A DNA stretch of 64,000 nucleotides from Minisyncoccota bacterium (GCA_028695015.1 JAQVJR010000001.1:33645-97644), one strand, 5' to 3'; shown: positions 22,718 to 51,552, counted from the stretch's first letter. The notes: generated by a model from the sequence alone, not told the origin. Numbers and translations: made by a program.

Positions 22718-22783
22718 CTTTATATTATTAAATTTTACTATAAAAACTTGAAATAATCAAAAAAAGAGGTTATAATATAAAAG

Positions 22784-23128: not shown

Positions 23129-23142
23129 TAATAAATGATAAC

Positions 23143-27714: not shown

Positions 27715-28023
27715 TTAAAACTCCTCTGTTAATATATCCTCTTTGCTCCGCTCTTCTTCGCTTATCTTATCTTCACTGCCACTACTTAAGATCCAAAGAA
27801 TCATTATGATGATCAATACTAATATGGCAATTCCATAAAATATGTTTCCTTCAATAAGGCTAAGTAAATAATTTATAGCCTTGCCATAATACAGATATAA
27901 TAAATTAAATACCTTATACCAAGTTTTTGTTAAAACTGGAAAGAAAAATAAAATAATAACTGCTACTGAAGATGCTTTCATAAATGTCCTTTTAATCATT
28001 ATACCTATCTCCTTTCTGATCAT
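27715..28023 (-). CDS. hypothetical membrane protein
   Basis: 102 aa with 2-3 TM helices. Confidence 0.4.
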   Translation of the reverse strand: MIRKEIGIMIKRTFMKASSVAVIILFFFPVLTKTWYKVFNLLYLYYGKAINYLLSLIEGNIFYGIAILVLIIIMILWILSSGSEDKISEEERSKEDILTEEF

Positions 28024-28265
28024 TTATTATTTAATAAATACAAACTAATTTTAATTTCCTTTTTATCACCATCGCACACAGATTGAAAGCCTATTTTTTT
28101 AGCTAATCTTTGTGCTTCTCTTAAAGAAATATTTCCATATTTTGTTCTTTTATAAATTATTTCTTTAATTTCTTGCCTTTCTTTATCTATCATTTCTTTT
28201 ATCTCCTTTTTAAAATTTTCAAAGTTCAATACATATATACTACCACTTTCTAAGTAAAAAGTCAA
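28020..28265 (-). CDS. hypothetical small protein (occupies the usual infA slot after map; not IF-1-like)
   Basis: 81 aa with no IF-1 S1-fold signature. Confidence 0.35.
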   Translation of the reverse strand: MTFYLESGSIYVLNFENFKKEIKEMIDKERQEIKEIIYKRTKYGNISLREAQRLAKKIGFQSVCDGDKKEIKISLYLLNNK

Positions 28266-28268
28266 TGA

Positions 28269-29021
28269 TTATTGTGTAATCACCAATGGTCCTTTTTTAG
28301 TAATGGCTATTGTATGTTCAAAATGACAAGCTATTTCTCCATTAGCAGTTACAAAACTACCATCTTTTAATTCTCTTATTTCTCCACTTTTAAAAGTCAC
28401 CATTGGCTCTAAAGCAATAACTAAACCTTGCTCTAGTTTAAAACCCTGTCCTGGATAACCAAAATTAAAAACAGGTGGATCTTCATGAGGTAAATACCCT
28501 ACCCCATGGCCAACCAAATTTTTAATAACTGCCAAGCCATTTTTTTCAATATGTGATTGGATTGCATAACCAATATCACCTAAGGTATTACCTAATTTTG
28601 CTGCTTTAATACCTTTATCTAAAGATTCTTTGGTTACCTGTATAAGTTTACGATATTGAGGCTCTATCTTGCCTATGCCTATGGTTATTGCCATATCAGT
28701 AAACAATCCCTTGTATTCCATGCCCAAATCAAGAGAAACAATATCTCCTTGTTTAAATACTACATCTTCAGTTGGAATACCATGAACAATAGTTTCATTA
28801 ACAGAAACACATAAGCTACTGGGAAAAGGCTCTTCAGCAAATTCTGGCTGATAATTTAAAAAAGAGGGCTTGCCCCCTATCTTTGTAATAGAATCATATG
28901 CTATTTTATCCAATTCTTTTGCGCTTACACCTTTCTTAGCTGCCTTAGCCACTTTATTCAAGATAATAGATAACTTCTTTCCTCCTTCACGCAAAATCTT
29001 TATCTCTGAATCACTTTTCAT
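28269..29021 (-). CDS. map: methionine aminopeptidase type I
   Basis: 250 aa with metal ligands in D…D…H…E…E arrangement. Confidence 0.9.
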   Translation of the reverse strand: MKSDSEIKILREGGKKLSIILNKVAKAAKKGVSAKELDKIAYDSITKIGGKPSFLNYQPEFAEEPFPSSLCVSVNETIVHGIPTEDVVFKQGDIVSLDLGMEYKGLFTDMAITIGIGKIEPQYRKLIQVTKESLDKGIKAAKLGNTLGDIGYAIQSHIEKNGLAVIKNLVGHGVGYLPHEDPPVFNFGYPGQGFKLEQGLVIALEPMVTFKSGEIRELKDGSFVTANGEIACHFEHTIAITKKGPLVITQ

Positions 29022-29674
29022 TTTAAATACTTTTTTATCTTAGAAAGGATTTCCTCATGAATATCTTCTATTAATCCTTCTCCTTCAACTTCAATTAACA
29101 TATTCTTTTTTTTAAAATAGTTGATAACTGGAATAATACTTTTTTTGAAAAAATCCATTCTATTTTTTATTGCTTGAGGATAATCATCACGACGACGAAT
29201 TAATTTAGCGCCACAATGAGAACATTTTTTTAAACCAGGATTTAAAATTAAAGAGAATTCCCGATGACACTGAGAGCAAATTCTTCTATTTAATAATCTT
29301 GTTGATACTTCTTTTTCAGAGGTTCTTAAATAGACAACTAATAATTTCCGTTTACTAAACCAAGACAAGGTCTCTTCTAGTATTTTAGCTTCTTCTAAAA
29401 CCCGGGGACTACCTTCAAAGATAACTCCTTTGTCTGGAGGTAAACTTAACATCTTATCTAGCCAACAATAGGTTACTAACCAAAGAGGAACTAAATTCCC
29501 TTTTGAAATTGTCTTAGAAATATTTTCTCCAAATAAATCTTTTCTTTTAGCTAAGGCCCTAAGAATATCACCTGTATCAATATTAATTAAAGAATATTTT
29601 TCTTGCAATAACTCTGCTTGAGTGCCTTTACCACAACCTGAACGTCCTAATAAGATAATATTAAGAGATTTCAT
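29018..29674 (-). CDS. adk: adenylate kinase (zinc-lid type)
   Basis: GRSGCGKGTQ P-loop. Lid has CSQC…CSHC. Confidence 0.9.
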   Translation of the reverse strand: MKSLNIILLGRSGCGKGTQAELLQEKYSLINIDTGDILRALAKRKDLFGENISKTISKGNLVPLWLVTYCWLDKMLSLPPDKGVIFEGSPRVLEEAKILEETLSWFSKRKLLVVYLRTSEKEVSTRLLNRRICSQCHREFSLILNPGLKKCSHCGAKLIRRRDDYPQAIKNRMDFFKKSIIPVINYFKKKNMLIEVEGEGLIEDIHEEILSKIKKYLK

Positions 29675-30932
29675 ATTCTCTCATTATTAATTGTGCTTCC
29701 ATTGTGTCCATAGTTTCCATAGCCACAGATACCAAAATCAAAAGTGAAGTCCCACCTATAGCAAATGTAGTAATTCCAGTAAATTGTTGCATTAATATTG
29801 GTAAAATAGCAATAATCCCTAGGAAAACAGCACCAAACAAGGTAATTTTATTACTTGTATTCATTAAAAATTGGGTTGTGGTTTTTCCAGGGCGATAACC
29901 AGGAACAAAACCCCCTCTTTTTTGAAGATTTTCTGCTATAGATTCTGGATTAAAAGAAACCATTGTATAGAAAAAAGTAAAGAGAAAAACTAATCCAAAG
30001 TAAAACAATAAATATATCCAAGATCCTTGATTAAAATTCTTAAAAAGCAAAGCTATTTTTAACAACCAAGGATTTTGAGAGCCTGATAGAAATTGACTTA
30101 TCATTTGAGGAAACATCAATATAGAAAGAGCAAAAATAATTGGAATCACTCCAGCCTGATTAATTTTCAAAGGGAGATAGGTAGAAGCCCCACCATATAT
30201 CTTTGTGCCCCTCACTTGTTTAGCATAACTCACTGGAATCCTTCTTTCACCACCAGAAATAAAAACAACACCAATAATAATCATTAAGGCCACAGCAAAG
30301 AAAGCAATCATATTTGGCATTCGAGAAGGATCAACAGTCACAATCGTTTGCAAAATCTCTCTAGGAAAATCTATCACAATTCCAGAAAAGATTATTAAAG
30401 AAATACCATTGCCTAATTTTTGTTCAGTTATCAATTCTCCAATCCACATCAAAAACACTGAAGCGGTAATGATAATAACCAAACTCCTTATTAAATCCAA
30501 AGGACTAGCAATAATAATAACCCCTTGTCGATTTAATAAATTTAAAAACCCAAATCCTTGAACAGCTGCTAAAGGAATGGTTAATAAACGAGAATATTGC
30601 ATATATTTAGCCCTTTCTTTTTCTGTGCCTTCATAAAACAATTCCTTTAAACTTGGAAAAATCATTGTTAATAATTGCATGATAATTGAAGCAGTAATAA
30701 AAGGACTAATACCTAATAAAGCTATGGAAATATTTTTAAAAGCACCTCCAGTAAAAACATTAAAAAGACCAAATATTTGATTTGAACTTAAGAAAAGTTG
30801 TAATTGATTAACATCTACATTAGGCAAAGGAATTGTTGCCATAATCCTAAAAACCACTAGTAAAAGAAAAATATTTAATATTTTTTTTCTTAAATCAGGG
30901 GAACGTAGTAAAGATAAGAATAATTTAAACAT
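29661..30932 (-). CDS. secY: preprotein translocase SecY
   Basis: 423 aa with 10 TM helices, sitting between rplO and adk. Confidence 0.9.
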   Translation of the reverse strand: MFKLFLSLLRSPDLRKKILNIFLLLVVFRIMATIPLPNVDVNQLQLFLSSNQIFGLFNVFTGGAFKNISIALLGISPFITASIIMQLLTMIFPSLKELFYEGTEKERAKYMQYSRLLTIPLAAVQGFGFLNLLNRQGVIIIASPLDLIRSLVIIITASVFLMWIGELITEQKLGNGISLIIFSGIVIDFPREILQTIVTVDPSRMPNMIAFFAVALMIIIGVVFISGGERRIPVSYAKQVRGTKIYGGASTYLPLKINQAGVIPIIFALSILMFPQMISQFLSGSQNPWLLKIALLFKNFNQGSWIYLLFYFGLVFLFTFFYTMVSFNPESIAENLQKRGGFVPGYRPGKTTTQFLMNTSNKITLFGAVFLGIIAILPILMQQFTGITTFAIGGTSLLILVSVAMETMDTMEAQLIMREYEIS

Positions 30933-30937
30933 TGTAT

Positions 30938-31381
30938 TTATTTTTGAATTTTCCCTCCTGCCTTTTCTATTGCTTCTTTGGCTTTTTGGGAAACTAAAAG
31001 ATTTTTAATTGTATAACTCTGAGTTAAAGGCATACTGCCTAATATTTTAACCAATTGTCGCTTGCTTTTCATTCTTGAAAGCAAACCTGCCTTTTCTAAT
31101 TTTGCCGGGGTGATTATCCCTCCTTGAGGAAAATGAGTCACAATATTCTCTAATTTTACAACAACTGAAGGTTCTTTTAAAGGATTAAAATGAACCCCTC
31201 TTTTTTTAGGAAACCTTAATACCATCTCTCTTATTTGAGGCTTTATCTTAGCTCCGGCTCGAGATTTTTGTCCTTTTTGTCCTTTACCTGAATAACCACC
31301 TCTTTTACCACCACGGCCTACTCTTCTTTTCTTTTTCTGAGAAGATTTAATATTTGCTTTATTAAGCTGGTGTATTTGCAT
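30938..31381 (-). CDS. rplO: ribosomal protein L15
   Basis: Gly/Arg-rich N-terminus. Directly follows rpsE, with no rpmD in between. Confidence 0.9.
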   Translation of the reverse strand: MQIHQLNKANIKSSQKKKRRVGRGGKRGGYSGKGQKGQKSRAGAKIKPQIREMVLRFPKKRGVHFNPLKEPSVVVKLENIVTHFPQGGIITPAKLEKAGLLSRMKSKRQLVKILGSMPLTQSYTIKNLLVSQKAKEAIEKAGGKIQK

Positions 31382-31886
31382 GATCTTTATCTGATTTTAC
31401 TATTGGTTTTTCTTGTTTCTTAAAGTTTTTTAATTTAGATAAGGCTAAAATCGTTGCCCGAGAATTATTAATTGGATTACTAGTATTACCTAGGATCTTA
31501 GCAATTGCATTAGGCACATTAGCTAATTTTAATACTGTTCTTGCTGCTCCACCAGCAATAATCCCCTTTCCCTCTCTAGCTGGCTTAATAATTACCTTAG
31601 CTGCTTTGTATTTAGCTGTAATCTCATGAGGAATGGTTCCATTAACAACTGGTACTGTGATTAAGTTTTTTTTAGCTTTAGTGCTTGCTTTTTGTATTGC
31701 TTGAGCAACATCCTTGCCTTTATCAACGCCAACACCAACTTGGTTTTTTTCTTTATCACCAACAACAACTGTGGCTCGAAAACTTAATCGTTTACCTCCA
31801 GCCACAACTCGAGTAACCCGAGCAATATCTAAAACAACCTCTTCCATCTTGTTTTTATCAAATTGTCTTTTTTTTACAAATGCCAT
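31362..31886 (-). CDS. rpsE: ribosomal protein S5
   Basis: S5 dsRBD plus C-terminal domain. Confidence 0.9.
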   Translation of the reverse strand: MAFVKKRQFDKNKMEEVVLDIARVTRVVAGGKRLSFRATVVVGDKEKNQVGVGVDKGKDVAQAIQKASTKAKKNLITVPVVNGTIPHEITAKYKAAKVIIKPAREGKGIIAGGAARTVLKLANVPNAIAKILGNTSNPINNSRATILALSKLKNFKKQEKPIVKSDKDHANTPA

Positions 31887-31896
31887 AATGTGTAAT

Positions 31897-32253
31897 TTAA
31901 AATATTAAACCTCCTTTTCTAGCCTTTTCTGCTAAAGCCTTTACCCTGCCTTGATATTTATACCCTGCCCTATCAAAAACAACTTTTTGTATTTTTTTTG
32001 CCTTAGCTTTTTCTGCTATCAATTCACCTAACTTTTCTGCTATTTCTGTTTTTTTACTCTTATCTTTAATTTTAATTTCAGAATCAATAGCAGAAACAAG
32101 AGTTTGTCTTGCTTCATCATCAATGATTTGTGCTGAGATATGTCTATTTGATTTAAAAACACAAAGACGAGGTCTTTCTTTTGTCCCCTTTATCTTAGCT
32201 CTAACTTTTTTATGTCTTTGCTGTCTTTGTTTTTGTTTAATCTTTGTTGTCAT
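31897..32253 (-). CDS. rplR: ribosomal protein L18
   Basis: Position between rplF and rpsE, with a basic N-terminus. Confidence 0.85.
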   Translation of the reverse strand: MTTKIKQKQRQQRHKKVRAKIKGTKERPRLCVFKSNRHISAQIIDDEARQTLVSAIDSEIKIKDKSKKTEIAEKLGELIAEKAKAKKIQKVVFDRAGYKYQGRVKALAEKARKGGLIF

Positions 32254-32267
32254 TTTATTTTAAAAAA

Positions 32268-32813
32268 TTATTCTCCAGAACCAACAACTTTTTTACCAGC
32301 CTTTCTTAAAATTCTCTCTCCAACATAATGAATACCTTTACCTTTATATGGCTCTACTGGTCTTTTGGATTTAATCAAAGCTGCTAATTGACCCACTCTT
32401 TCTTTAGATATTCCACTAACAATGATAATATTTTTTTCCACTTTAACTTCTAAATCTTCGGGTAAAGGAATAATAATTGGATGACTATAACCTAATTTTA
32501 AATTTAAGTCCTTGCCTTCAATATTTGCTTGATAACCAACACCATTAATTTCTAATTGCTTGGTAAACCCTTCTTCTACTCCTGTAATTAAATTATCAAT
32601 CCTTGATCTTAAAGTACCCCATCTTATAGCAGTATCTTTTTGCTGCTTAATTGGGGTGATATAAACCATATTCTCTTTTATTTCTGTATTAAAATCACCA
32701 TTGAGGCTTATTGAATCCTCACCTTTTGGTCCCTTAGCTCTTATTTCATTGTTTTCCAAATTTAGAGAAACAGTTTCTGGAACAATTATTGGTTTTTTAC
32801 CTATTCTAGACAT
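32268..32813 (-). CDS. rplF: ribosomal protein L6
   Basis: MSRIGKKPI… start. Confidence 0.9.
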   Translation of the reverse strand: MSRIGKKPIIVPETVSLNLENNEIRAKGPKGEDSISLNGDFNTEIKENMVYITPIKQQKDTAIRWGTLRSRIDNLITGVEEGFTKQLEINGVGYQANIEGKDLNLKLGYSHPIIIPLPEDLEVKVEKNIIIVSGISKERVGQLAALIKSKRPVEPYKGKGIHYVGERILRKAGKKVVGSGE

Positions 32814-32835
32814 TGTTGTTTAAAATTCAATTAAA

Positions 32836-33252
32836 TTACCATATTTCTAATAAAACTTCGCCTCCCATTTTTAGCTTCTTTGCTTCCAAATCAGCTAAAA
32901 CTCCTTTTGAGGTTGATAAAATCCTAATCCCTAATCCCTTTTTAAAAGGCCAGATTTCTTTTGATTTCAAATATACTCTTCTAGAAGGCTTGGAAATTCT
33001 TTTTATTTCAGAGATTTTAGGCTGCCCGTCTTTATCATACTTGATTTTAATTTCAATAAATTTCTTAACCATTCCTGATTGAGAATTTTTTGTTTTCTTC
33101 TTTACTTGTTCAATCCCTTCAATATATCCATATTTTAATAAAGCTTTTAGAATCTCCATCTTTATCTCTGAATAAGGAACCAGAACGGTTGTTTTTTTAA
33201 CCGCTTGGGCATTGCGAATCCTTGTTAACATATCAGCTATTGGATCTGTCAT
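32836..33252 (-). CDS. rpsH: ribosomal protein S8
   Basis: MTDPIADMLTRIRNA start. Confidence 0.9.
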   Translation of the reverse strand: MTDPIADMLTRIRNAQAVKKTTVLVPYSEIKMEILKALLKYGYIEGIEQVKKKTKNSQSGMVKKFIEIKIKYDKDGQPKISEIKRISKPSRRVYLKSKEIWPFKKGLGIRILSTSKGVLADLEAKKLKMGGEVLLEIW

Positions 33253-33284
33253 ATATATTAATGAATTAAGATATTAAAATAAAT

Positions 33285-33470
33285 TTACCAACTAGATTTT
33301 TTAACCCCAGGAATCTTTCCTTGAGTAGCTAATTCTCTAAAACAAATGCGACAAAGACCAAAATCTCTCATATAAGCTCTGGTCCTTCCACAACGCCAAC
33401 ATCGTCTCACTTTGCGTGAAGAATATTTGGGTTTTTTTCTTGATCTTGCGATTACTGATTTTTTGGCCAT
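33285..33470 (-). CDS. rpsN: ribosomal protein S14 (Zn-ribbon type Z)
   Basis: 61 aa with CWRCGR…CRIC. Confidence 0.9.
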
Positions 33471-34018
33471 AATAAAGGAAATCCTAATAATTTATATAAT
33501 TCCATTGCTTGCTCTTTATTTTTTGCATTAGTGACAAAAGTCACTTCCAAACCAAACATTGGAACATTTTGTATTTGCCCTGTTTCTGGGAAAACGCTAA
33601 ATTCTCTAATACCATAACTTAAATTCCCTTGTTCATCAATGTTTTTTAAAGGAATACCCCAGAAATCTCTTGTTCTTGGTAGAACCAAATTAATAAACCT
33701 GAGAATAAAATCTTCCATTCTTTGTCCTCTTAAAGTAACTTTTAAACCTACAGGCATACCTTCTCTAAGCTTAAAACTAGCAATTGATTTTCTAGCTGGT
33801 CTTACAGATGGTTTTTGTCCAGTAATCATTGCTAATACTCCTGAGATTTTTTCAATTAAACCTTTATTGTCTTTAGAGGCAATTGTTAAACGACCAATAC
33901 CAACATTAACAATAACCTTGGTAATCTTAGGCACAGCTAAATCATTAGCCAGATTAAACTTCTTTTTCATTTCTGGCACTACTGTTTTATTAAATTGGTT
34001 TTTATAATCAAGTTTCAT
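33452..34018 (-). CDS. rplE: ribosomal protein L5
   Basis: L5 family sequence in its conserved operon position. Confidence 0.9.
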
Positions 34019-34023
34019 AAAAT

Positions 34024-34332
34024 TTATGCTATTTTAGAATTGCATTTTTTACAAATCCTATACTTGTCTTTTCCATCTTTTAGAAAATTAATCCTGGTTG
34101 GTTTTTTGCAATGAGGGCAAACCAACATCACATTAGCTCGGGCAATCGGACGAGGCACAGATATAATTTCACCTTTTTCTCCTGTTTTTTTTGCCCTTTG
34201 GATTTTTTTTACCAAATTTAAAGATTCAATAACAACTTTATCTTCAGAAGGCAAAGTTTTTATAATCTTTCCTGTTTTTCCTCTATCTTTACCTTTTTTT
34301 ATTATTACTAAATCTCCTTTTTTAATATTCAT
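34024..34332 (-). CDS. rplX: ribosomal protein L24 with C-terminal CxxC…CxxC zinc-ribbon extension
   Basis: KOW motif GDLVIIKKGKDRGKTGKI. Tail has CPHCKK…CKKC. Confidence 0.85.
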   Translation of the reverse strand: MNIKKGDLVIIKKGKDRGKTGKIIKTLPSEDKVVIESLNLVKKIQRAKKTGEKGEIISVPRPIARANVMLVCPHCKKPTRINFLKDGKDKYRICKKCNSKIA

Positions 34333-34351
34333 ATTAATAGATCTTTATTTT

Positions 34352-34720
34352 CTATACTAATTCTGGGGCTAAAGCCGCTACTTTAGTAAATCCTTTTTCT
34401 CTTATTTCTCTTGGAATTGGTCCAAAAATACGATTACCTACTGGTTCTTTCTTGTCATTAAGAATAACAGCTGCGTTTTCATCAAAACGGATATAGCTTC
34501 CATCTTTTCTGCGAAAAGCTTTTTTTTGTCGTACAATTAAAGCCTTAACCACTGCTTTTTTCTTTATCTCTTTTCGAGGCTCAGCAACTCGAACTGAAGC
34601 CACTACAATATCACCTATTTGAGCATATCTTCTTCTGCTCCCTCCTAAAACTTTAAAACAGCGAACTATCTTAGCGCCACTATTGTCAATAATTTTTAAA
34701 ATTGTCTGTGGTTGAATCAT
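34352..34720 (-). CDS. rplN: ribosomal protein L14
   Basis: MIQPQT…DNSGAK start. Confidence 0.9.
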
Positions 34721-34727
34721 TTTGACT

Positions 34728-34988
34728 TTATAAAATATTGATAACTTTCCATCTTTTATCTTTAGAGATCGGCCTTGTTTCTTCTATAACTACCTTATCA
34801 CCTATTTGACATTGTTTTTTCTCATCATGAGCTTTAAAATTCTTAAACACCTGAAAATGCTTTTTATATTTAGGATGCAATTTCAATCTTGAAACTTTAA
34901 CCACTACTGTCTTATCCATTTTATTTGAAACAACCTCTCCTTTTAGAGTTCTCTTCTTGCTTTTAGGTTTGTTTGTATTTTTCTCCAT
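34728..34988 (-). CDS. rpsQ: ribosomal protein S17
   Basis: 86 aa in the conserved operon slot. Confidence 0.85.
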
Positions 34989-34992
34989 AAAA

Positions 34993-35193
34993 TTAATCTA
35001 TAATTTGAGATTTTTCATTTAGAATAGTTAAAATACGAGCAATGTCTTTTTTCAAAGCACGTACTGAGCGGACATTCTTTACCTTACCGCTAGCTAAATT
35101 AAATCTCAACTCTCTTAATTTCTTTTGAGATTCAGAGAGTAATTGATTTAACTCTTCATTTGATTTCTGACGTAAGTCTTTAGTTTTAACCAT
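34993..35193 (-). CDS. rpmC: ribosomal protein L29
   Basis: 66 aa in the conserved operon slot. Confidence 0.85.
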
Positions 35194-35211
35194 TGTTTGT
35201 TTTTAAATTCA

Positions 35212-35622
35212 TTACTTCTTAACTACTGATGTTCTTATAGGCAACTTAGAATTAGCTAAACGGAAAGCTTCTTTAGCTTTAGCAAAAGAAACTCCATCTA
35301 TTTCAAAAAGAATTCTTCCTGGTTTTACTGGACAAACATAAAACTCCACTGCTCCTTTACCTCCACCCATAGGCACTTCAGGAGATTTTCTAGTTATTGG
35401 CTTATCTGGAAACACTCTCATCCAAACCTTACCTTCTTTTTGCAAAGATCTAGCAATTGCCCTTCGCGCTGCTTCTATTTGTCGCGCTGAAAGCCAAGTT
35501 TCTTCTAAAGCTTTTAAACCATAACTACCAAAGGTGATATGAATCCCTCGAGTATCTCTTTGACGGAATCTACCTCGTCCTTTATGTGTCTTTCGATGTT
35601 TTACTTTTTTTGGCATTAACAT
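35212..35622 (-). CDS. rplP: ribosomal protein L16
   Basis: [11 protein letters not shown] start. Confidence 0.9.
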
Positions 35623-35635
35623 AGCATTTCAATAA

Positions 35636-36292
35636 TTAAATCTTATTATCTTCTGATTGAGAAAATTTTTCTCCTTTATTAATCCAAACTTTAATCCCAA
35701 TCGTCCCATAAGTACAATGAGCTTCAGCTTTTCCATAATCAATATCTGCTCTTAAAGTAGAGAGAGGTAATGTGCCTTGTTGCAACCATTCATTACGAGC
35801 TATCTCTATTCCATCTAATCTACCAGAAACCATAATCTTAGCTCCAAAAACTTTTTTATGCTGCATTATCTTACTTAACTGCTGTTTTAATACTCGCCGA
35901 TAAGGCATTCTTTTTTCTAAATCTTCAGCAATGCTTTGAGCCACTATTCGAGCTGAAATTTCTGGATGCCTTACCTCTTCTACAGAAATATTAATATTCA
36001 AATCAGTTTTTAAAATCTTTTTAAGGCCTTTTTGCAAAGCATCAATGCCTTGCCCTTGACGACCTATTAAAAGACCTGGACGAGCAGTAGTAATAATAAT
36101 CTTAATATCTTTGGTTTTTCTTTCTATAACAATAGATTCAATTCGACTAGCCTTTGCTTTTTTAAAAATAAATTCTCTGATTTTATGATCTTCTTCTAAT
36201 AACTTAGCTCTATCTTTCAAATTAAACCATCGGGATTCCCATCCTTTATTTAAGCCTAACCTATAAAATCTTGGATTAATTTTCTTTCCCAT
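35636..36292 (-). CDS. rpsC: ribosomal protein S3
   Basis: KH domain plus S3 C-terminal domain. Confidence 0.9.
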   Translation of the reverse strand: MGKKINPRFYRLGLNKGWESRWFNLKDRAKLLEEDHKIREFIFKKAKASRIESIVIERKTKDIKIIITTARPGLLIGRQGQGIDALQKGLKKILKTDLNINISVEEVRHPEISARIVAQSIAEDLEKRMPYRRVLKQQLSKIMQHKKVFGAKIMVSGRLDGIEIARNEWLQQGTLPLSTLRADIDYGKAEAHCTYGTIGIKVWINKGEKFSQSEDNKI

Positions 36293-36313
36293 AACTAAAT
36301 ATTAAATTCTTTT

Positions 36314-36856
36314 TTAAATTGCTTTACGACGAAAAACTTGTTTCTTTGCTATTGCCCCTTCAGATGTTTTTTTCTCTATTCTTTTTTCTGCTTTCTTAAA
36401 CTGAGATTTTTTAATCTTGGATTCTTTAACTTCTTTTTTTCCTTTTATTTCTTGTTCTTGACCCTTAATAGCTTTTTTATCTTTTTCTACTTTATCTATT
36501 CCTTTCTTTATTACTGTCTTGCCTTTAATTTCATCTAAGACAATATGGATATGAGAGGTTCTTTTTTTAATTGTATAAGCTGCGCCTCGAGCTCGAGGAC
36601 GCCATCTTTTTAAAGACGGACCTTCATCCACTCTGGCTATCTTTACATAAAGATCATCTTTATTCAACTGAAAATTATTTTCTGCATTAGCAATTGCTGA
36701 TTTTAACAATTCTAAAACAGGTTGACTACTTCTTTTAGGAAGATGAATCAACTGTTGCTCAGCATCTTTGACTGACAATCCTTTTATTAACTCAGTGACT
36801 AAACGAGTTTTCCTAGGACTAATTCTCAAATATTTTAAAGAAGCTTTTACTTCCAT
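36314..36856 (-). CDS. rplV: ribosomal protein L22 with long Lys-rich C-terminal extension
   Basis: 180 aa versus about 110 typical. The tail is K/E-rich. Confidence 0.85.
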   Translation of the reverse strand: MEVKASLKYLRISPRKTRLVTELIKGLSVKDAEQQLIHLPKRSSQPVLELLKSAIANAENNFQLNKDDLYVKIARVDEGPSLKRWRPRARGAAYTIKKRTSHIHIVLDEIKGKTVIKKGIDKVEKDKKAIKGQEQEIKGKKEVKESKIKKSQFKKAEKRIEKKTSEGAIAKKQVFRRKAI

Positions 36857-36881
36857 GTCTTTTTATTTTTAAAAAGTTTTA

Positions 36882-37214
36882 TCATTTTTTATCTGTCTTA
36901 GCTTTATCTGCTGTGGCTCCAGTTTGAGTTCTAGCTTTCATCTCTAATTCTTTCTGCATTCTGCCACCATGTCGAACAAACTTACGAGTTGGAGCAAATT
37001 CTCCTAAGCGATGGCCAACCATTTCTTCTCTGGCTTCAACATCAATAAAAATCTTTCCATTGTGAACTTGAAAAACAAAACCTACCATTTCTGGAGTAAT
37101 CATTGAATCTCTAGACCAAGTTTTAATTGGAGTTTTATCTCCAGATTTCATCTTGGATAATTTTTTTAATAATTTTGGATGAACAAAAGGACCTTTTTTT
37201 AATGAACGTGCCAT
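36882..37214 (-). CDS. rpsS: ribosomal protein S19
   Basis: 110 aa with a basic C-terminal tail. Confidence 0.9.
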
Positions 37215-37229
37215 AATATTAAAAATTTA

Positions 37230-38057
37230 TTATTTTTTCTTTCTTCGACTTACTATAAATTTATCAGAATATCTTTTCTTTTTCCTTGTTTTTCTCCCTC
37301 CAGTTACTTTACCATAAATATTCTTTGGTCTCTTAGTACCCCTTTGAGTTCTTCCTTCTCCACCACCATAAGGATGATCAACTGGATTCATAGCTGTGCC
37401 TCTAACTTTAGGCCTCCTGCCTAAATGACGAGAACGCCCAGCCTTACCAAGGCTTACCATCTTACGCTCAACATTAGAAAGTTGACCTAAGGAAGCATAA
37501 TATTGATTAGGAATTTTCCTTATCTCTGAAGAAGGCATTTTAAAATGCGTATGAACACCATCTTGAGCCACCACTTGAGCAAAAGAACCAGCAGATCTAG
37601 CTAATTTACCACCAGCACCTGATTTAGTTTCTATATTATGCACAAAGGCACCAACAGGAATATTTTTTAACATCATTCGATTACCTTTTTTCAAAGGAGT
37701 TTTTTCATCACAAATAATCTTGCTGCCTTCTTTTAATCCCTGAGGAGATAAGATATAACCCCAAGCCCCATCAGCATATGAAATCAATGAAATAAAAGCA
37801 GAACGATTAGGATCATACTCTATACTCTTTACTGTACCTGGAATTCCTTTTTTTTCTTGTCCAAAAAAAATATCGCGGTAAAGCTTTTTACTTCCGCCTC
37901 CTTTATGGCGCACTGTTATCTGCCCTTTAGATCTACCAACGTTTTTCTTTAAAGATTTAGCTAATTTCTTAAAAGGCTTATCTGTTGTTAACACAGAATA
38001 ATCACTAACTGAATAATGGCGCCTACCTGGTGTTTTTGGTTTATGTTTTTTAATCAT
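37230..38057 (-). CDS. rplB: ribosomal protein L2
   Basis: 275 aa with Gly-rich C-terminal motifs. Confidence 0.9.
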   Translation of the reverse strand: MIKKHKPKTPGRRHYSVSDYSVLTTDKPFKKLAKSLKKNVGRSKGQITVRHKGGGSKKLYRDIFFGQEKKGIPGTVKSIEYDPNRSAFISLISYADGAWGYILSPQGLKEGSKIICDEKTPLKKGNRMMLKNIPVGAFVHNIETKSGAGGKLARSAGSFAQVVAQDGVHTHFKMPSSEIRKIPNQYYASLGQLSNVERKMVSLGKAGRSRHLGRRPKVRGTAMNPVDHPYGGGEGRTQRGTKRPKNIYGKVTGGRKTRKKKRYSDKFIVSRRKKK

Positions 38058-38470
38058 ATTCCTAATTCTATTTTTTGCCCCTCTTGTAAGGTCACAATCA
38101 TCTTTTTATTACCTTTTTTAATGCTTTTCTGAGCTCTCCATCTTTTTGTTTTCTGAGGTGCTCTTAATGTATTTACTTTCAAAACTTTCACTTTATAAAT
38201 ACTTTCTACTGACTTTTTAACTTCATTCTTAGTTGCCTTTTCTTTAACTTCAAAAACATATTTATTCTCTTCTTGACCTAATAAGGTAAACTTTTCACTA
38301 AAATGAGGTTTAATTAAAATCTTATGCTCTTTTGAATAACCTTTTGAAACCACAGGAGGGCTTGTTTCTTTTTTAATATCAGAAACTTTTGGAGATTCTT
38401 TTTTCTCCTGTTTTGGTTTTTTAGAAACCTTTTTTCTTGGTTTTTTTGAAAAAAAATCTAGAATAGCCAT
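38054..38470 (-). CDS. rplW: ribosomal protein L23 with N-terminal basic extension
   Basis: 138 aa. The C-terminal about 95 aa is L23-like. Assignment rests partly on operon position. Confidence 0.75.
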   Translation of the reverse strand: MAILDFFSKKPRKKVSKKPKQEKKESPKVSDIKKETSPPVVSKGYSKEHKILIKPHFSEKFTLLGQEENKYVFEVKEKATKNEVKKSVESIYKVKVLKVNTLRAPQKTKRWRAQKSIKKGNKKMIVTLQEGQKIELGI

Positions 38471-38472
38471 TT

Positions 38473-39117
38473 TTAATATTGTTTTTCTAAGACCATTAAT
38501 CCTTTTGTTGAAAATAACAGATATTTATGATTTAAAATATCTATCAAGTTTATATTTTCTATATTTATCACCTTTAGATAAGGCAAGTTTTGCGCTGATC
38601 TAAATAAATCTTTTTCCTGTGAATGAATTATAAATAAAGTGCTAGGCATTTTCTTTTTTTCTCCAATAATATCCTTACAAAGACTATCTATCATTTTAGT
38701 CTGTGGTTTTTCTATTTCTGCGCTCTTTATAACCTTAATCTCTTTATCTTTTAATTTTTGAGATAAAGCCATTTTCAATGCTTTTTCTTTAACTTTCTTA
38801 TTAATCTTCTTTTTACCCCTTTCTTCTTTAGTTCTAGGCCCAAAAGTAACTCCCCCTCCTTTCCAAAGAGGTGAGCGAATAGAACCATGACGAGCCCTAC
38901 CAGTTCCTTTTTGAACCCAAGGCTTTCTACCACCGCCTCTAATTTCTGAACGGTTTTTTGCAAAAGCTAAAGGCTCTCTTTGATTACTAACTAAATCTTT
39001 ATACACTTGTAAAACAAGAGGTTTGTTAAGTTGTTCATTAAAAATCTTTGAAGACAATTCTACTTCTTCCTTGGTCTCTCCTTTTAAATTATAAACTGGT
39101 GCTTTCATTTTAACCAC
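38473..39117 (-). CDS. rplD: ribosomal protein L4
   Basis: 214 aa. Confidence 0.9.
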
Positions 39118-39694
39118 TAATTTTTAATAATGAATTTCTCCTACCAGGAATAGCTCCTTTTAAATAAAGAAGATTCTTTTCTGGAATAACTTTTATCACC
39201 TTAACTCCTTTTAAAGTTATCTGTTCAAAACCCATTCTGCCTGGCATTTTCTTACCTTTCATCACTCGTTGAATTCCAGTTTGCCCAATTGAACCTGGTG
39301 CTCTTAATTGATCTTTTGTTCCATGACTAGCTGGAGCCCCTTTAAAACCATGTCTTTTCACCACTCCTTGAAAACCTTTTCCTTTACTTTTCCCTGTTAC
39401 TCTAACCTTATCGCCTTCTTCAAAAACATCAACTTTAATTTCATCACCTATCTTTAGATTATTCATTTCCGTTTCATTTAGTTTATTCTTTTCTAAATTA
39501 AATTCTTCAAACCATTGAAATTTGTTATTTTTCTTACCAAAACCTACTTGAATAGCTTGATATCCATCTTTTTCTTTGGTTTTTAATTGAGTAATTACAA
39601 CTGGACCCGCTTGAATAATTGTTACCGGAACAACATTGCCCTGCTCATTAAAAACCTGGGACATTTCTAATTTTTTAGCTAAAGTAATCTTCAT
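39110..39694 (-). CDS. rplC: ribosomal protein L3
   Basis: 194 aa. Confidence 0.9.
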
Positions 39695-39728
39695 CTTCTT
39701 TTATTAATTTAAATTCTTCATAGAAAAA

Positions 39729-39752
39729 CTGGGCCCTAGCCCAGTTTTCTTT
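39729..39752 (-). terminator. hairpin + U-run between rpsJ and rplC (ACTGGGC-TAG-GGCCCAGTTTTTC on the minus strand)
   Basis: GC-rich 7-bp stem inside the S10 operon. Could be an attenuator or a partial terminator. Confidence 0.4.
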
Positions 39753-39781
39753 GACTTCATTCCAGACTAGATATTCCGGGC

Positions 39782-40108
39782 TTACATCTTAATCTCTATA
39801 TCTATTCCCGCTGGCAAATCTAAATTAGTAAGTGCTTCTATTGTTCTTTGATTTGCATTAGGAATTTCTATCAATCTTTTATGAATCCTTATCTCAAACT
39901 GTTCTCGTGCATCTTTTTTAACAAAAGTCGCTTTATTGACCGTATAGCGATGAATTTCTGTGGGCAAAGGAATAGGTCCGACAACCTCATTACCATATCT
40001 CATTACTGTTTCAATTATCTGCTTGCAAGAATTATCCAGTATTCGATAATCATAACCTTTAATTTTTATCCTAATCCTTTGTTGAATTTCTGTTTTCGTA
40101 GTGGCCAC
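39782..40108 (-). CDS. rpsJ: ribosomal protein S10
   Basis: 108 aa, 9 nt downstream of tuf. Confidence 0.9.
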   Translation of the reverse strand: MATTKTEIQQRIRIKIKGYDYRILDNSCKQIIETVMRYGNEVVGPIPLPTEIHRYTVNKATFVKKDAREQFEIRIHKRLIEIPNANQRTIEALTNLDLPAGIDIEIKM

Positions 40109-40117
40109 AATAAATAA

Positions 40118-41320
40118 TTACTTTTGAATGAATTTTGTTACTATACCTGCGCCAACTGTTTTTCCTCCTTCTCGAATAGCAAATCGAGAACCTTCATCTA
40201 AGGCTACGGGAACAATTAATTTCACATTGAATTTTACATTATCACCTGGCATAACCATCTCTACTCCTTCAGGTAAAGTAACTTCTCCTGTCACATCTGC
40301 TGTTCTAATAAAGAATTGAGGCTTATAACCAGTAAAGAATGGTGTATGTCTACCTCCTTCTTCTTTAGCTAAGATATAAACTTCAGCTTCAAACTCTGTA
40401 TGAGGAGTAATTGAACCTGGCTTAGCCAATACCTGGCCTCTTCTAATTTCTTCTTTCTTTAATCCTCTTAATAAAATACCAACATTATCCCCAGCCTGGC
40501 TTTCTTCTAAAGACTTATTAAACATCTCTAAACCAGTAACTGTTGTTTTAGTTGTTGGTAAATAACCAATAATTTCTAATTCTTCATTTAGTTTTACTAC
40601 ACCTCTTTCCACTCTTCCAGTGGCTACAGTACCCCTGCCTTCAATAGAGAAAATATCTTCTATTGGCATTAAGAAAGGCTTATCAATATCTCTCTTAGGC
40701 TCTGGGAAATATGTATCAATAGCATCTAAAAGATCAAAAATTGGTTTGTTTGCTGGATCATCAGCAGTGTTAGATTCTAGGGCTTTTAAAGCTGACCCTC
40801 TGATAATTGGGACATCTTTTCCATTAAATTCATGTTTGGTTAATAATTCTCTAATTTCTGTTTCAACCAAATCTATTAATTCTTCATCTTGAACCATATC
40901 CACTTTATTTAAGAAAACAACCATTGCTGGCACCCCAACCTGACGGGCTAAAAGAATGTGCTCAAATGTCTGAGGCATGGGTCCATCAGGAGCAGAAACT
41001 ACTAAAATAGCTCCATCCATCTGCGCAGAACCAGTAATCATATTCTTAATATAGTCAATATGGCCTGGACAATCAATATGCGCATAATGTCTTTTATCTG
41101 TTTCATATTCAGAGTGATGAACATTAATGGTAATCCCTCTGGCTTTTTCTTCTGGTGCCTTGTCTATTTCAGACACATCACCGTCTTTTTTTGCAGTGCC
41201 TTTTAAGTGAAGAGCATGCAAAATAGCAGCGGTTAAAGTGGTTTTTCCATGATCAATATGACCAATGGTTCCCACATTCATGTGAGTTTTACCACGAACA
41301 AATTTTTCTTTTTCTGCCAT
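40118..41320 (-). CDS. tuf: elongation factor Tu
   Basis: 400 aa with [14 protein letters not shown] and NKVD motifs. Confidence 0.95.
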
Positions 41321-41457
41321 AATTTTTATTTATTATTTATTTTATTTATTTTGACCTATTTTATATTTTTTTATTTTGACCCTTAAAGCTCTGATTTATC
41401 CCTAAGCCTTTAAGTATCTATCATATTAAGGCATAACCTTTTTAATGTCAACCCTAA

Positions 41458-43566
41458 TTAGGCAACTTCTTTACCAATTATTTCCTGAGTGATATTATCT
41501 GGCACTTCTTGATAATGATCAAATTCCATGGTGAAAACTCCTCTGCCTTCAGTTAATGAACGTAGCTTTGTAGCAAAGCCAAACATTTCTGCTAAAGGCA
41601 CTTTAGCTAGAATAATTTTCATCATGGTTCGCTCACCAATGCTTTCAATCATTCCTCTTTTAGAACTGATATCACCAGTAACATCACCTAGGTTTTGTTC
41701 TGGAATAACAACTTCTAATTTCATTATTGGCTCTAAGAGAACTGGACTAGCTCTTTTGGCTCCATCTTGAAAAGCCATTGAGCCAGCTATCTTAAAAGCA
41801 AAATCTGAAGAATCCACTTCATGAAAAGATCCATCATAAAGAGTCACTCTAATATCAGAAATTGGATAGCCAGCTAAAATTCCTTTATCCAAAGCTTCCT
41901 TAATTCCTTTTTCTACAGCTGGAATATATTCTTTAGGGATAACACCACCTTTAATAGTATCAACAAATTCAAATCCTTTGCCTCTTTCCAAAGGTTCTAA
42001 TTTTAGTAAAACATGACCATATTGCCCCCTACCTCCTGACTGCCTAATATATTTTCCTTCAGTTTCTACTGTTTTTCTAATAGTTTCTTTATAAGCAACC
42101 TGAGGTCTTCCTGTTTTCACATTTAAATTAAATTCCCTTTTCATTCGATCCACTAATATTTCCAAATGAAATTCACCCATGCCTGAAATAATAGTTTCTG
42201 AAGTTTCTTGGTCGCTTTTTGCTGTAAAAGTAGGATCTTCTTCAGAAAGCTTTTTTAAAACTAAAGACATTTTTTCTTGGTCAGCTTTTGTTTGCGGCTC
42301 TACTTTAATTGAAATCACTGGCTCTGGAAACTCTATCTTTTCCAGAATTACTGGATGATTAGGATCACATAAAGTATCACCAGTATTTGTATTTTTCAAG
42401 CCAACTGTTGCTGCAATATCCCCAGCTCTAATTTCTTCTAATTCTTCTCTTTTATTAGAATGCATTTGTAATAACCTGCCAATTCTTTCCTGGCTGGATT
42501 TACTTGCATTTAAAAGATAATTTCCTTTTTTAAAAACACCTGAATAAACTCTAAAATAGTTTAAAGTCCCCACATAAGGATCATTAGCCACCTTAAATAC
42601 CAAAGCAGCAAAAGGTGCCTTATCATCTGGAGGGCAAACTATTGCTTCTCCTGTTTTTGGGTGAATACCCTGAACTGGAGGCAAATCTAATGGTGAAGGC
42701 ATATATTCTACAATCCCATCTAATAATGGCTGAATGCCTTTGTTTTTAAATGAACTACCACAAAATACTGGAATTATTATTCCAGCTATTGTTGCCTTAC
42801 GTAATATTTCTCGAACTTTATCTTCAGAAGGTTCAATTTCTTTTTCTAAATAATCTGTTAAAACCTCTACATCTTGTTCTGCTATTTTCTCAATGAAAAC
42901 TTTTCTGTATTCCTTAGCCTTATCCATTAAGTCAGCAGGAATTTCTTTTACACTTATTATTTCTCCCTGCTCTCCTTCAAAGTAAATTGCTTTCATTGTC
43001 ACCAAGTCTATCACCCCTTCAAATTTGCTTTCAGCCCCTATAGGGATATTAACTGCTAGAGCATTAGGAGTTAATCTTTCTAAAATAGATTTAAATGCTT
43101 TTTCATAATCAACACCTAAACGATCCATTTTATTAATAAAACACATTCGAGGAACTTTGTATTTATCAGCCTGACGCCAAACTGTTTCTGATTGAGATTC
43201 AACACCAGCGACTCCATCAAAAATTACCACCGCTCCATCTAAAACTCTTAATGATCTCTGGACCTCTGCGGTAAAATCAATATGTCCAGGCGTATCAATA
43301 ATGTTAATTCGATATTCATTTTGAGGATCTTTTTCCCTATGTGTTGGTGCCCAAAAACAAGTAGTGGCTGCAGAAGTAATTGTTACTCCCCTTTCTCTTT
43401 CTTGAGCCATCCAATCCATAATTGTTGTTCCCTCATCAATAATACCTATCTTGTGAGTAATACCAGTGTAAAATAAAACTCGCTCAGTCGTGGTTGTTTT
43501 TCCAGCGTCTATATGAGCAATAAAACCAATGTCCCTTATTTTTTCAATAGGATATATTTTTTCCAT
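41458..43566 (-). CDS. fusA: elongation factor G
   Basis: 702 aa with AHIDAGKTT and DTPGHIDF motifs. Confidence 0.95.
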
Positions 43567-43575
43567 AATATTAAT

Positions 43576-44043
43576 TTAAAAACTAAAATGAGCAAAAGCC
43601 CTATTTGCTTCTGCAATACGATGAGTGTCTAATTTCTTTTTCATTGCTGCCCCTTCGTTTTTAGAAGCTAGGATTAATTCTTCAGCTAACCTTTCTGCCA
43701 TTGACTTGCCTTTTTTAGCCCGAGAAGCATTAATTAACCAACGAGAAGCTAAAGTGGTTTTTCGATATTCAGGTACTACTTGAGGTACTTGATAATTAGC
43801 CCCTCCAATTCTTCTTGTTTTTACTTCTAATTCAGGAGATACATTTTTAACTGCCAAATTAAAAACTGCTATTGGTTCTTGCTTGGCTGTTTTTTCAATA
43901 ATATCCATTGTGTTATAAAAAACTCTCTGAGCTGTAGATTTCTTTCCATCTTTCATTAAATAGTTAATAAAGCGTGTAACTAAAGCGCTTTTGTATTTTA
44001 AATCTGGCTCGTATTGTTTTTCTTTTTGGTGTTCTCCTCTCAT
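43576..44043 (-). CDS. rpsG: ribosomal protein S7
   Basis: 155 aa. Confidence 0.9.
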
Positions 44044-44456
44044 GATTTTTTCTCTTTTTTAGTTCCGTATTTACTTCTTTTTTGTTTTCTTCCTTCAACT
44101 CCCATTGTATCATATTTACCTCGCACTATATGATATCTTACTCCAGGTAAATCTTTAACCCTACCTCCACGCACTAAAACAATTGAGTGTTCTTGTAAAT
44201 TATGACCTTCTCCTGGGATATAAGCCGTCACTTCCATTCCATTACTTAACTTAACCCGAGCTACTTTCCTTAAAGCTGAGTTTGGTTTCTTAGGCGTAGT
44301 TGTAAAAACTTTCAAACAAACTCCTTTTTTAAGAGGTGAAAAATGATGAGTTGGCTTATTCTTAATAGCATTAAAAGAAAAAGACAGAGCAACTGATTTG
44401 CTCTTTTTAGCTATTGGCTTTCTCCCTTTTCTAATTAGTTGACCTAGGGTTGGCAT
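44040..44456 (-). CDS. rpsL: ribosomal protein S12
   Basis: [13 protein letters not shown] start. Confidence 0.95.
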
Positions 44457-45704: not shown

Positions 45705-47225
45705 TTACTTAATAAAGTATAAATCTAATTTTTTTAAAGCATGCTTAGCTAAGGTTAATCTTTGAGGGCTATTCGTATACAAAGAACACAATGCCTCATT
45801 CTTTTTGACTTTTTCTCCTAAAGTTTTATGTAGATAAATTCCAGCTTCTTTAGTTGTTGGTGCTCCTAATAATCTACAAATCTTGTTAATATTTTTATTA
45901 TGAATTTTTTTAATAACTCCAGACTTAGATGATTTCAATTCCCATGAAACCTTTCCAATATTAATCTTTTCAGAATCAATATTAGAATCTCCTCCTTGAG
46001 CTTGTATTATTTCCTGCATTTTTTTAAAAGCTCTACCTGATTGTAAAGATTCTAAAGCCATTTTTTGACCTTGTCCTTTTTTAGCTTTTCCTACTAGTTC
46101 TAATAAATTACCCGCAAACAAAACTGATTTTTTTTCTAAATCCATTGGCCGCTCTGATTTTTGCTGCAAGACCCTCATTACATCTCTTGCTTCTAAGCTA
46201 GGTCCAATACCATAACCAATCGGCCCTAAAGTTTCAGTAATAATAATTTTAGTCTTAATTTTAAAACGTTTTGATAAATAAAGAAATAGGTTCTTAACAA
46301 AAAGAATATCTTTTTCATCATGGAGTTTTGCTGTTGGTCCTATTGGCATATCAATCACTAAATGAGTCACTCCAGTTGCTACTTGCTTAGACATAATACT
46401 CACTACCATTTTTGAATAAGGCTCTCTGCCCAGACAACGAGTAATTTCAATAAACCGATCATCTGCTGGTGCTAATCTTAAGGCACCACCCCAAATCAAA
46501 CAAGCATTTGTTTTTTGTACAATTTTTTTTATCTCTTTTGAAGCAAATCCAACTGGAGCTAAAACTTCCATTGTATCAGCTGTACCTGAAGCTGAAGTTA
46601 CTGCCCGAGAAGAAGTTTTTGGAATCACCACTTCATTACTAGCTACAATTGCCACAATTATTGGTGTAATCCTATTTCCAGGGATTCCACCAATTGAATG
46701 CTTATCAGCAACTACTTTTCCAAATTTAAGCATCTCTCCAGTTTCACTAATTGCCTTAGTAAGATAATAAATTTCTTCTTTCGAAAAATTCTTTTTATCA
46801 AAAGCTGAAGCAATAAAAAAAGCTAATTCTAAATCATTAATCCTATACTTAACAATATCTGTAACCAAATCATAAATTTCTTGATTAGATATCTTTTGAC
46901 CTTCTAATTTTTTATGAATAGTTTTCAAAGAAATTGGTTGTCCTGCTAGCTTTAACTCTAGCTTCTCTCCTTTTTTAATCTTATACCTATTAGTAATATC
47001 ACTAAATAAACCTACTTCTCCTGGCTTGACTAAGCTTTTAGTAGTATCTACTGCAATTTCAGTTTTTTTCTCTTGCCATTTTAAAACTAATTTATCCCCA
47101 GCTCTAATACCAAAACTTTCTCCATCTTTTTCATGGATAATAGCAATCCAAGGATAACCAGTTTTAATATCTAAATACTTTACTTTTAAGAAAAATGTAT
47201 GATTTGTTTTTGAGTTTTTTTTCAT
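45705..47225 (-). CDS. AMP/thymidine phosphorylase family enzyme with N-terminal extension (archaeal-type AMP phosphorylase-like)
   Basis: 506 aa with a DKHSIGG motif (glycosyltransferase family 3) and an extra roughly 80-aa N-terminal domain as in archaeal AMP phosphorylases. Confidence 0.65.
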   Translation of the reverse strand: MKKNSKTNHTFFLKVKYLDIKTGYPWIAIIHEKDGESFGIRAGDKLVLKWQEKKTEIAVDTTKSLVKPGEVGLFSDITNRYKIKKGEKLELKLAGQPISLKTIHKKLEGQKISNQEIYDLVTDIVKYRINDLELAFFIASAFDKKNFSKEEIYYLTKAISETGEMLKFGKVVADKHSIGGIPGNRITPIIVAIVASNEVVIPKTSSRAVTSASGTADTMEVLAPVGFASKEIKKIVQKTNACLIWGGALRLAPADDRFIEITRCLGREPYSKMVVSIMSKQVATGVTHLVIDMPIGPTAKLHDEKDILFVKNLFLYLSKRFKIKTKIIITETLGPIGYGIGPSLEARDVMRVLQQKSERPMDLEKKSVLFAGNLLELVGKAKKGQGQKMALESLQSGRAFKKMQEIIQAQGGDSNIDSEKINIGKVSWELKSSKSGVIKKIHNKNINKICRLLGAPTTKEAGIYLHKTLGEKVKKNEALCSLYTNSPQRLTLAKHALKKLDLYFIK

Positions 47226-47246
47226 TCTGATTGTTGTTTAATTGAT

Positions 47247-50534: not shown

Positions 50535-50554
50535 GATTTTAAAAAATATGTAAT

Positions 50555-51037: not shown

Positions 51038-51069
51038 ATATTTAATTTTATTTAAAATCCTCTGTATTA

Positions 51070-51098
51070 ATTATATCTCTTTACTAAGTACTGTCAAG
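51070..51098 (-). promoter_or_regulatory. consensus promoter TTGACA-N17-TATAAT for cassette-1 operon (50555..51037 + 48972..50534)
   Basis: Plus-strand tgtcaa at 51093-51098 and attata at 51070-51075. Confidence 0.55.
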
Positions 51099-51533: not shown

Positions 51534-51552
51534 TTTCTTTCACCTCTCTTTT

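Follow-up and report, generated by a model that had tools for sequence, protein, structure and literature searches.

A str-S10-spc ribosomal-protein gene cluster without a uL30 gene in an uncultured member of the Paceibacterota

We analysed a 64,000-nucleotide (nt) stretch of DNA from a Minisyncoccota bacterium (GCA_028695015.1, JAQVJR010000001.1:33645-97644), hereafter the window, which carries a large cluster of ribosomal-protein genes on its minus strand. An initial annotation, made from the sequence alone, had described this cluster as a ribosomal super-operon with lineage-diagnostic gaps and several extended proteins, and had ascribed it to an organism resembling the Candidate Phyla Radiation (CPR). 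Pfam searches on translated open reading frames (ORFs), with fusA recognized from its translation, confirmed the cluster at this locus and identified 27 contiguous, co-oriented genes, which span positions 44456 down to 28269 and follow one another from rpsL to map in the order given here (protein lengths in amino acids, aa):

44040-44456, minus strand: rpsL (uS12), 138 aa with an internal insert of ~14 aa; Pfam Ribosom_S12_S23, 3.6e-37
43576-44043, minus strand: rpsG (uS7); Pfam Ribosomal_S7, 3.1e-56
41458-43566, minus strand: fusA (EF-G), 702 aa; identified from the translation, no Pfam scan
40118-41320, minus strand: tuf (EF-Tu); Pfam GTP_EFTU, D2 and D3 domains
39782-40108, minus strand: rpsJ (uS10); Pfam Ribosomal_S10, 4.5e-31
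39110-39694, minus strand: rplC (uL3), short form of 194 aa; Pfam Ribosomal_L3, 7e-15
38473-39117, minus strand: rplD (uL4); Pfam Ribosomal_L4, 6.7e-53
38054-38470, minus strand: rplW (uL23), 138 aa with a Lys-rich N-terminal extension of ~49 aa; Pfam domain at residues 50-135
37230-38057, minus strand: rplB (uL2); Pfam L2_N and L2_C
36882-37214, minus strand: rpsS (uS19), 110 aa with an Ala/Lys-rich C-terminal tail; Pfam domain at residues 3-82
36314-36856, minus strand: rplV (uL22), 180 aa with a 73-aa C-terminal tail; Pfam domain at residues 5-107
35636-36292, minus strand: rpsC (uS3); Pfam KH_2 and S3_C
35212-35622, minus strand: rplP (uL16); Pfam 5.6e-44
34993-35193, minus strand: rpmC (uL29); Pfam 6.6e-16
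34728-34988, minus strand: rpsQ (uS17); Pfam 2.6e-28
34352-34720, minus strand: rplN (uL14); Pfam 2.5e-49
34024-34332, minus strand: rplX (uL24), 102 aa with a C-terminal CPHC...CKKC; Pfam KOW and ribosomal_L24
33452-34018, minus strand: rplE (uL5); Pfam L5 and L5_C
33285-33470, minus strand: rpsN (uS14), short 61-aa Cys4 form with CxxC...CxxC in the translation; Pfam Ribosomal_S14, 2.9e-21
32836-33252, minus strand: rpsH (uS8); Pfam 3.5e-41
32268-32813, minus strand: rplF (uL6); Pfam 9e-29
31897-32253, minus strand: rplR (uL18); Pfam 6.4e-39
31362-31886, minus strand: rpsE (uS5); Pfam S5 and S5_C; last 20 nt shared with rplO
30938-31381, minus strand: rplO (uL15); Pfam Ribosomal_L27A; start inside rpsE
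29661-30932, minus strand: secY; Pfam SecY, 3.4e-96
29018-29674, minus strand: adk, with a Cys4 lid; Pfam ADK and ADK_lid
28269-29021, minus strand: map (methionine aminopeptidase), the final gene of the cluster; Pfam Peptidase_M24, 1.5e-43

For all 27 genes, this order is identical to that of the canonical str-S10-spc-alpha supercluster of the Escherichia coli or Bacillus subtilis type. The genes are tightly packed, with intergenic distances of -20 to +32 nt except for 87 nt between rpsJ and rplC and 137 nt between fusA and tuf, and such packing suggests that the block could be co-transcribed. Unlike the canonical supercluster, the window lacks rpmD, lacks the infA-rpmJ-rpsM-rpsK-rpsD-rpoA-rplQ series after map, has no intact rplKAJL and carries no rpoBC before rpsL, where an M50 protease, a membrane ORF, a thymidine-phosphorylase-family protein and a PRPP-synthetase-like protein are encoded. 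The term super-operon is an overstatement, the contiguous block comprising the str, S10 and spc portions, with rpoBC, rplKA and the alpha operon all detached from it.

One gap lies between rpsE and rplO. As initially annotated, the two genes share exactly 20 nt, and because rplO starts inside rpsE with a typical L15 N-terminus (MQIHQL...GRGG), there is no physical room for rpmD. Ribosomal_L30 gave no match in the Pfam analysis of the ORFs or in a six-frame phmmer search of the whole 64-kb window. For comparison with relatives, we used a SecY search that took one genome per GTDB species and retained the 80 best loci (labelled L001 and so on), a few of which carry placeholder names. Wherever one of these loci includes both genes, L15 comes after S5, and none of the loci with both genes has L30. 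The sole long S5-L15 gaps occur in two distant Patescibacteria relatives, and the idea that they harbour L30 was rejected, the insert in each, at the very site that L30 occupies in other bacteria, being a DJ-1/PfpI gene (L048 8924-9472 and L053 8298-8846; Pfam 1e-34 to 1e-36). Absence of uL30, with adjacent uS5 and uL15 genes, has been described for all CPR (PMC9297842; also given as a hallmark in PMC5220378), the L30-less ribosomal cluster going back to Brown et al. 2015, as cited in both papers. The rpsE gene thus abuts rplO because the lineage has no uL30, and the proposal that this absence is a CPR hallmark agrees with the literature. Among the gaps that had been called lineage-diagnostic, it is the only documented diagnostic one.

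The taxonomic placement of the window is secure. All 80 best SecY loci come from metagenome-assembled genomes (MAGs) of Patescibacteria/Parcubacteria, at identities from 100% down to 47%. The top match, with a SecY identical to that of the window, is 'Candidatus Paceibacterota bacterium STE_70', and the DNA identity between the window and this genome is 92.6%. An even closer sequence is the NCBI MAG contig JAQULI010000001.1 (220.7 kb, GCA_028718665.1), which is 99.8-99.9% identical to the window at the DNA level, and the NCBI protein identical to the L10 of the window is named 'Candidatus Pacebacteria'. The NCBI phylum Minisyncoccota corresponds to Paceibacterota. The window has a GC content of 0.29-0.34 (31%), is ~90% coding and carries nearly all genes on the minus strand; no rRNA gene was found in it. 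Judged by these sequence comparisons, the organism is an uncultured member of the Paceibacterota (Parcubacteria; CPR/Patescibacteria), in line with the CPR-like affiliation first suggested, which is further borne out by a Parcubacteria-type uS19 tail and a CPR-type uS12 insert. Like the published CPR cluster lacking uL30, the window is AT-rich and compact and has no rpmD, and nothing substantive differs between the two.

The extended ribosomal proteins fit the same picture. The C-terminal tail of L22, predicted at about 70 residues, makes up 73 of 180 aa and contains 33% Lys. For L23, an N-terminal extension of about 40 aa had been claimed, and the Pfam domain indeed begins at residue 50; the basic tail noted for S19 amounts to 28 Ala/Lys-rich residues beyond the Pfam domain. 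Among the relative loci, uL22 mostly measures 170-200 aa and uL23 120-160 aa, and an extended uS19 is common. These features have been described before: CPR ribosomes are reported to have a larger uL22, uL23 (N-terminal region) and bL12 and a shorter uL3 in which an internal region is missing, an internal uS12 insert occurs in nearly all CPR, and an Ala/Lys-rich C-terminal region of ~25 aa in uS19 is specific to Parcubacteria (PMC9297842). The window shares all of them. As the extensions of uL22, uL23, uS19, bL12 and uS12 and the four cysteines of uL24 are shared within the clade, they may provide extra rRNA-contacting or stabilizing segments.

Two of the modified proteins need further description. 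In uL24, the predicted CxxC...CxxC motif is present (CPHC...CKKC) and recurs in ~90% of the relatives; the zinc ribbon is putative. The L24 of Thermus thermophilus (PDB 4zer chain 1Y, among hundreds of entries) has CPACGKPTR...RVCAKC at the aligned positions, so that both proteins have the same C-terminal Cys4 motif, CPxCxKPTR...R(I/V)CxKC. By this motif comparison, the four-cysteine arrangement is not a CPR novelty. In bL12, the N-terminal duplication is real, but its unit is 9 residues rather than a heptad: within the first 57 nt of rplL, a 27-nt in-frame tandem duplication (26/27 bases identical) encodes AEEKEQK(K/Q)V twice. The bL12 proteins of the relatives carry variable-number (EEKK)n runs at the same place, and these variable repeats suggest repeat slippage in the bL12 N-terminus.

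Beyond map, the cluster ends abruptly. The gene order continues, in the 3' direction, with the following ORF, then a 102-aa membrane ORF, an Sm_multidrug_ex membrane protein (SmMDE), triosephosphate isomerase (TIM, tpiA) and a SIMPL protein:

28020-28265, minus strand: 81-aa orphan ORF with a TTG start; no meaningful Pfam match

The 81-aa ORF is present only in the closest relatives among the loci compared (L001, L003 and L055), and it was rejected as initiation factor 1 (IF-1) on account of this restricted distribution and its lack of an S1/IF-1 domain. Pfam and six-frame searches thus agree with the earlier description of this slot, in which a non-IF-1 ORF and membrane proteins stand in place of the genes from infA to rplQ. 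The SIMPL gene is succeeded by phosphoglycerate kinase (PGK, pgk), a DHH phosphoesterase, RNase H, an RNase P RNA on the plus strand, DUF4012, MurJ, LepA and DivIC. The RNase P RNA (22782-23134, plus strand; bacterial class A, RF00010, 106.7 bits) lies on the strand opposite to its neighbours, and a 100-aa ORF at 22757-23059 (minus strand) is spurious because it overlaps this RNA.

Six-frame phmmer searches with the --max option, which included small and overlapping frames, used E. coli IF-1, L36, S13, S11, S4, L17, L30, L11, L1 and RpoA as queries and returned no match at E<0.1 in the window. Queries from CPR relatives for IF1, L36, S13, S11, S4, RpoA and L11 likewise gave no phmmer match in the window. 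None of the missing genes (alpha operon, L30, L11 and L1) was found in the ~10 kb beyond either end of the window, where one flank encodes Pth, HisRS, S21, YbeY, FtsA, FtsZ and NrdDG and the other YchF, PPDK and enolase. When we considered the 52 loci whose sequence extends 1.5 kb or more beyond map, an alpha-operon gene followed 3' of map, within the fetched flank, in only two (L066 and L073) and was missing from the other 50. Moreover, the order map, SmMDE, TIM, SIMPL, PGK, DHH, RNase H, DUF4012, MurJ is common to relatives of 66-100% SecY identity, so that an artefact of assembly can be ruled out and the rearrangement is seen to be old and shared across the clade. As a proposed lineage-diagnostic trait, the missing stretch 3' of map is real but reflects this rearrangement, gene loss being hypothetical here. 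In this clade, the ancestral supercluster has been broken up, with the alpha operon (infA through rplQ) no longer on the 3' side of map and rpoBC detached from rpsL. For annotators, the practical point is that the spc cluster usually stops at map in this part of Parcubacteria.

The genes rplJ and rplL lie in a different part of the window:

13754-14110, minus strand: gene for a basic, helical protein of 118 aa whose family is confined to the clade, in the usual position of rplK-rplA
13585-13697, minus strand: L10-leader-like element; RF00557, full-length, 31.8 bits (gathering score 44), E=0.0032
13066-13584, minus strand: rplJ (uL10), 172 aa; Pfam Ribosomal_L10, 4.8e-17
12606-13046, minus strand: rplL (bL12), 146 aa; Pfam L12_N and L12

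This group (12606-14110) is ~14 kb from map, and because two tRNA genes and an iscS-nifU-mnmA block on the opposite strand intervene, rplJ-rplL is not in one operon with the map cluster. The absence of L11 and L1 genes before rplJ, another of the proposed gaps, is genuine, but rplJ does not belong to the 28020-44456 cluster to which it had been assigned. We place the rplJ start at the ATG at 13584, as in a 100% identical 172-aa NCBI protein; an upstream TTG, which would extend the gene to 13620, was rejected, the extension running into the leader element and being noncoding. This element ends 1 nt before the ATG and hence lies in the 5' untranslated region of rplJ. It is accompanied by a promoter-like TTGACA-16-TATACT at 13718-13691 and a terminator-like hairpin at 13618-13599 (minus strand), and thereby resembles, with a sub-threshold score, the Rfam L10 leader in its position 5' of rplJ next to a hairpin and a promoter-like site. 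Five out of the six relatives also give RF00557 matches, at 32.4-44.2 bits, and only in L095 does the score reach 44. Because promoter-like site, leader match and hairpin flank the 5' side of rplJ, rplJL is probably transcribed from a promoter of its own and subject to an autoregulatory attenuator, and the two genes would form a separate unit controlled by an L10-leader-type element. The 118-aa gene need not be co-transcribed with them, because it lies upstream of the promoter and leader.

The surroundings of rplJ-rplL are conserved, six relatives sharing the unit tRNA-Thr, a 104-127-aa gene without Pfam domain, rplJ, rplL, tRNA-Val and a ~65-aa membrane ORF. In the window, this small ORF (12141-12365, minus strand) encodes an N-terminal membrane helix and a highly acidic, Glu-rich tail and has no Pfam match; every relative examined has kept it, at 65-77 aa, behind rplL and tRNA-Val. 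In L095, a related Paceibacterota contig, three aptamers of the c-di-GMP-II riboswitch exceed the gathering score (6214-6297, 6349-6435 and 7685-7769; 61-70 bits); they lie 3' of rplL and precede small ORFs and the gene for a CAP-domain protein. The window has no c-di-GMP-II match at the gathering score. For the annotation of related genomes, it may help that rplJ-rplL stands apart, with an L10-leader-like element and the clade-specific 104-127-aa gene upstream.

The missing genes could have been lost rather than relocated, an alternative whose parts are not equally probable. IF-1, S13, S11, S4, RpoA and L11 are essential. They are also reported as present in CPR, not being among the proteins listed as lost (PMC9297842), and for these two reasons all six are almost certainly encoded elsewhere in the genome, so that loss of alpha-operon genes or of uL11 finds little room. 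The case is different for uL1, where we consider the odds of loss about even. A large group of Parcubacteria lacks uL1 (PMC5220378; PMC9297842), namely the OD1-L1 group without rpL1 (PMC5220378), and the window, likewise of Parcubacteria type, has no rplA beside rplJ or elsewhere in the ~84 kb formed by window and flanks. The group is defined by genome-wide absence of uL1, whereas for the window the search for rplA covered 64 kb plus ~10 kb of either flank and found none. L033, from a more distant member of the Parcubacteria with 51% SecY identity, in which secY is not preceded by the ribosomal-protein cluster, encodes secE-nusG-rplK at 5790-7557, followed by a tmk-like gene and gatB, with neither rplA nor rplJ (rplK by Pfam, secE, nusG, tmk and gatB by eye). 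This arrangement is compatible with a split of the rplKAJL cluster through loss of rplA. By analogy, rplK is probably located with secE-nusG elsewhere in the genome, which may lack rplA entirely, like the genomes of the OD1-L1 group.

We also considered whether the 118-aa protein could functionally fill the place of rplK-rplA, either as a hitherto unrecognized, lineage-specific protein associated with the ribosome or as a factor regulating the stalk operon; the lineage itself may be devoid of uL1. As the initial annotation had stated, the protein is basic (25 K+R vs 12 D+E) and cannot be assigned, Pfam searches at E up to 10 yielding noise only. A single-sequence homologue search retrieved near-identical copies only; a profile search extended the family to 54 homologous clusters, all hypothetical, with several positions at least 90% conserved. 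The AlphaFold2 model (pLDDT, the predicted local distance difference test, of 83.5) consists of a disordered N-terminus followed by four helices and found no PDB match at E<1 in Foldseek and no specific fold match. The JGI label 'alkylhydroperoxid...' on an identical protein is unsupported, since structures of the Carboxymuconolactone-decarboxylase fold appear only at a Foldseek E of ~4, and a divergent L11 or L1 was rejected because the protein is all-helical, lacks the PPVGPALG region of L11 and has no ribosomal fold match. A ribosomal or regulatory role would be in keeping with the basic character and the confident helical model with a disordered basic N-terminus, which is typical of many small ribosomal proteins, and with the position of the gene directly 5' of the L10 leader and rplJ, kept in 6/6 relatives (7/7 contexts including the window), even in L091, where the upstream neighbours differ. 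However, the protein has no homology or fold match to a ribosomal protein or regulator, rplJL seemingly has its own promoter-like site and leader, such that co-transcription is not required, and a conserved neighbourhood within a shallow clade can be mere inherited synteny. We therefore regard such a role as unlikely. If the protein did prove to be ribosome-associated, this would be relevant to the functioning of CPR ribosomes that lack uL1. In the analysis as a whole, this helical, clade-restricted family, always upstream of the L10-leader-like element and rplJ-rplL, is the only mildly new element.

Joins in a metagenome-assembled contig can be artefacts, and assembly or binning chimeras might account for both the abrupt end at map and the separate position of rplJ-rplL. 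We consider this highly improbable, because the junction from map to SmMDE/TIM/PGK recurs in independent assemblies (L001, L003-L008, L010 and L055; 66-100% SecY identity) and the unit of tRNA-Thr, the 118-aa gene, rplJ, rplL and tRNA-Val is found again in contigs from JGI, ENA, Logan and NCBI. In addition, the 484-kb contig CAZUBI010000001.1 holds the rplJ region ~13 kb from secY, ~3 kb outside the fetched SecY locus. Finally, the 31% GC content and the loss of L30 in some non-CPR lineages as well (PMC9297842) would allow an AT-rich Firmicute or Mollicute that lost L30 independently, but such an origin is effectively refuted by the uniformly Patescibacteria SecY matches, the Paceibacterota MAG source, a uS19 tail specific to Parcubacteria and a uS12 insert of the CPR type.

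Taken together, the locus is best explained as an ordinary cluster of str, S10 and spc ribosomal-protein genes from an uncultured member of the Paceibacterota, a reading to which we assign a probability of roughly 0.9. Its ribosomal peculiarities are nearly all published CPR traits, and a near-identical sequence is already in GenBank; accordingly, the significance of the cluster is small beyond the correct annotation of a CPR genome. Several points weigh against parts of this account. The leader element scores below the Rfam gathering score in the window, and co-transcription of the 27 genes is argued from their spacing. The location of the alpha operon and rplK elsewhere and the proposed loss of rplA are derived from essentiality and the lineage literature. 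As for the negative phmmer searches, the E. coli queries retrieved the genes expected in the control loci L066, L073 and L033.

Some further features of the window lie outside these gene groups. Upstream of rpsL, at 45705-48140 (minus strand), Pfam domains identify a 506-aa thymidine-phosphorylase-family protein with an N-terminal extension of ~100 aa and a 297-aa PRPP-synthetase-like protein, a pair resembling a nucleotide-salvage module common in CPR. Six consecutive ORFs of 520, 160, 125, 403, 265 and 215 aa follow at 48972-54617 (minus strand), with no Pfam match at E<=0.001. At 3587-5824 (minus strand), a 745-aa ORF without Pfam domain corresponds to one of 795 aa in the near-identical NCBI contig (L085 5872-8259), the two assemblies differing by an indel or repeat around window positions 5529-5705.

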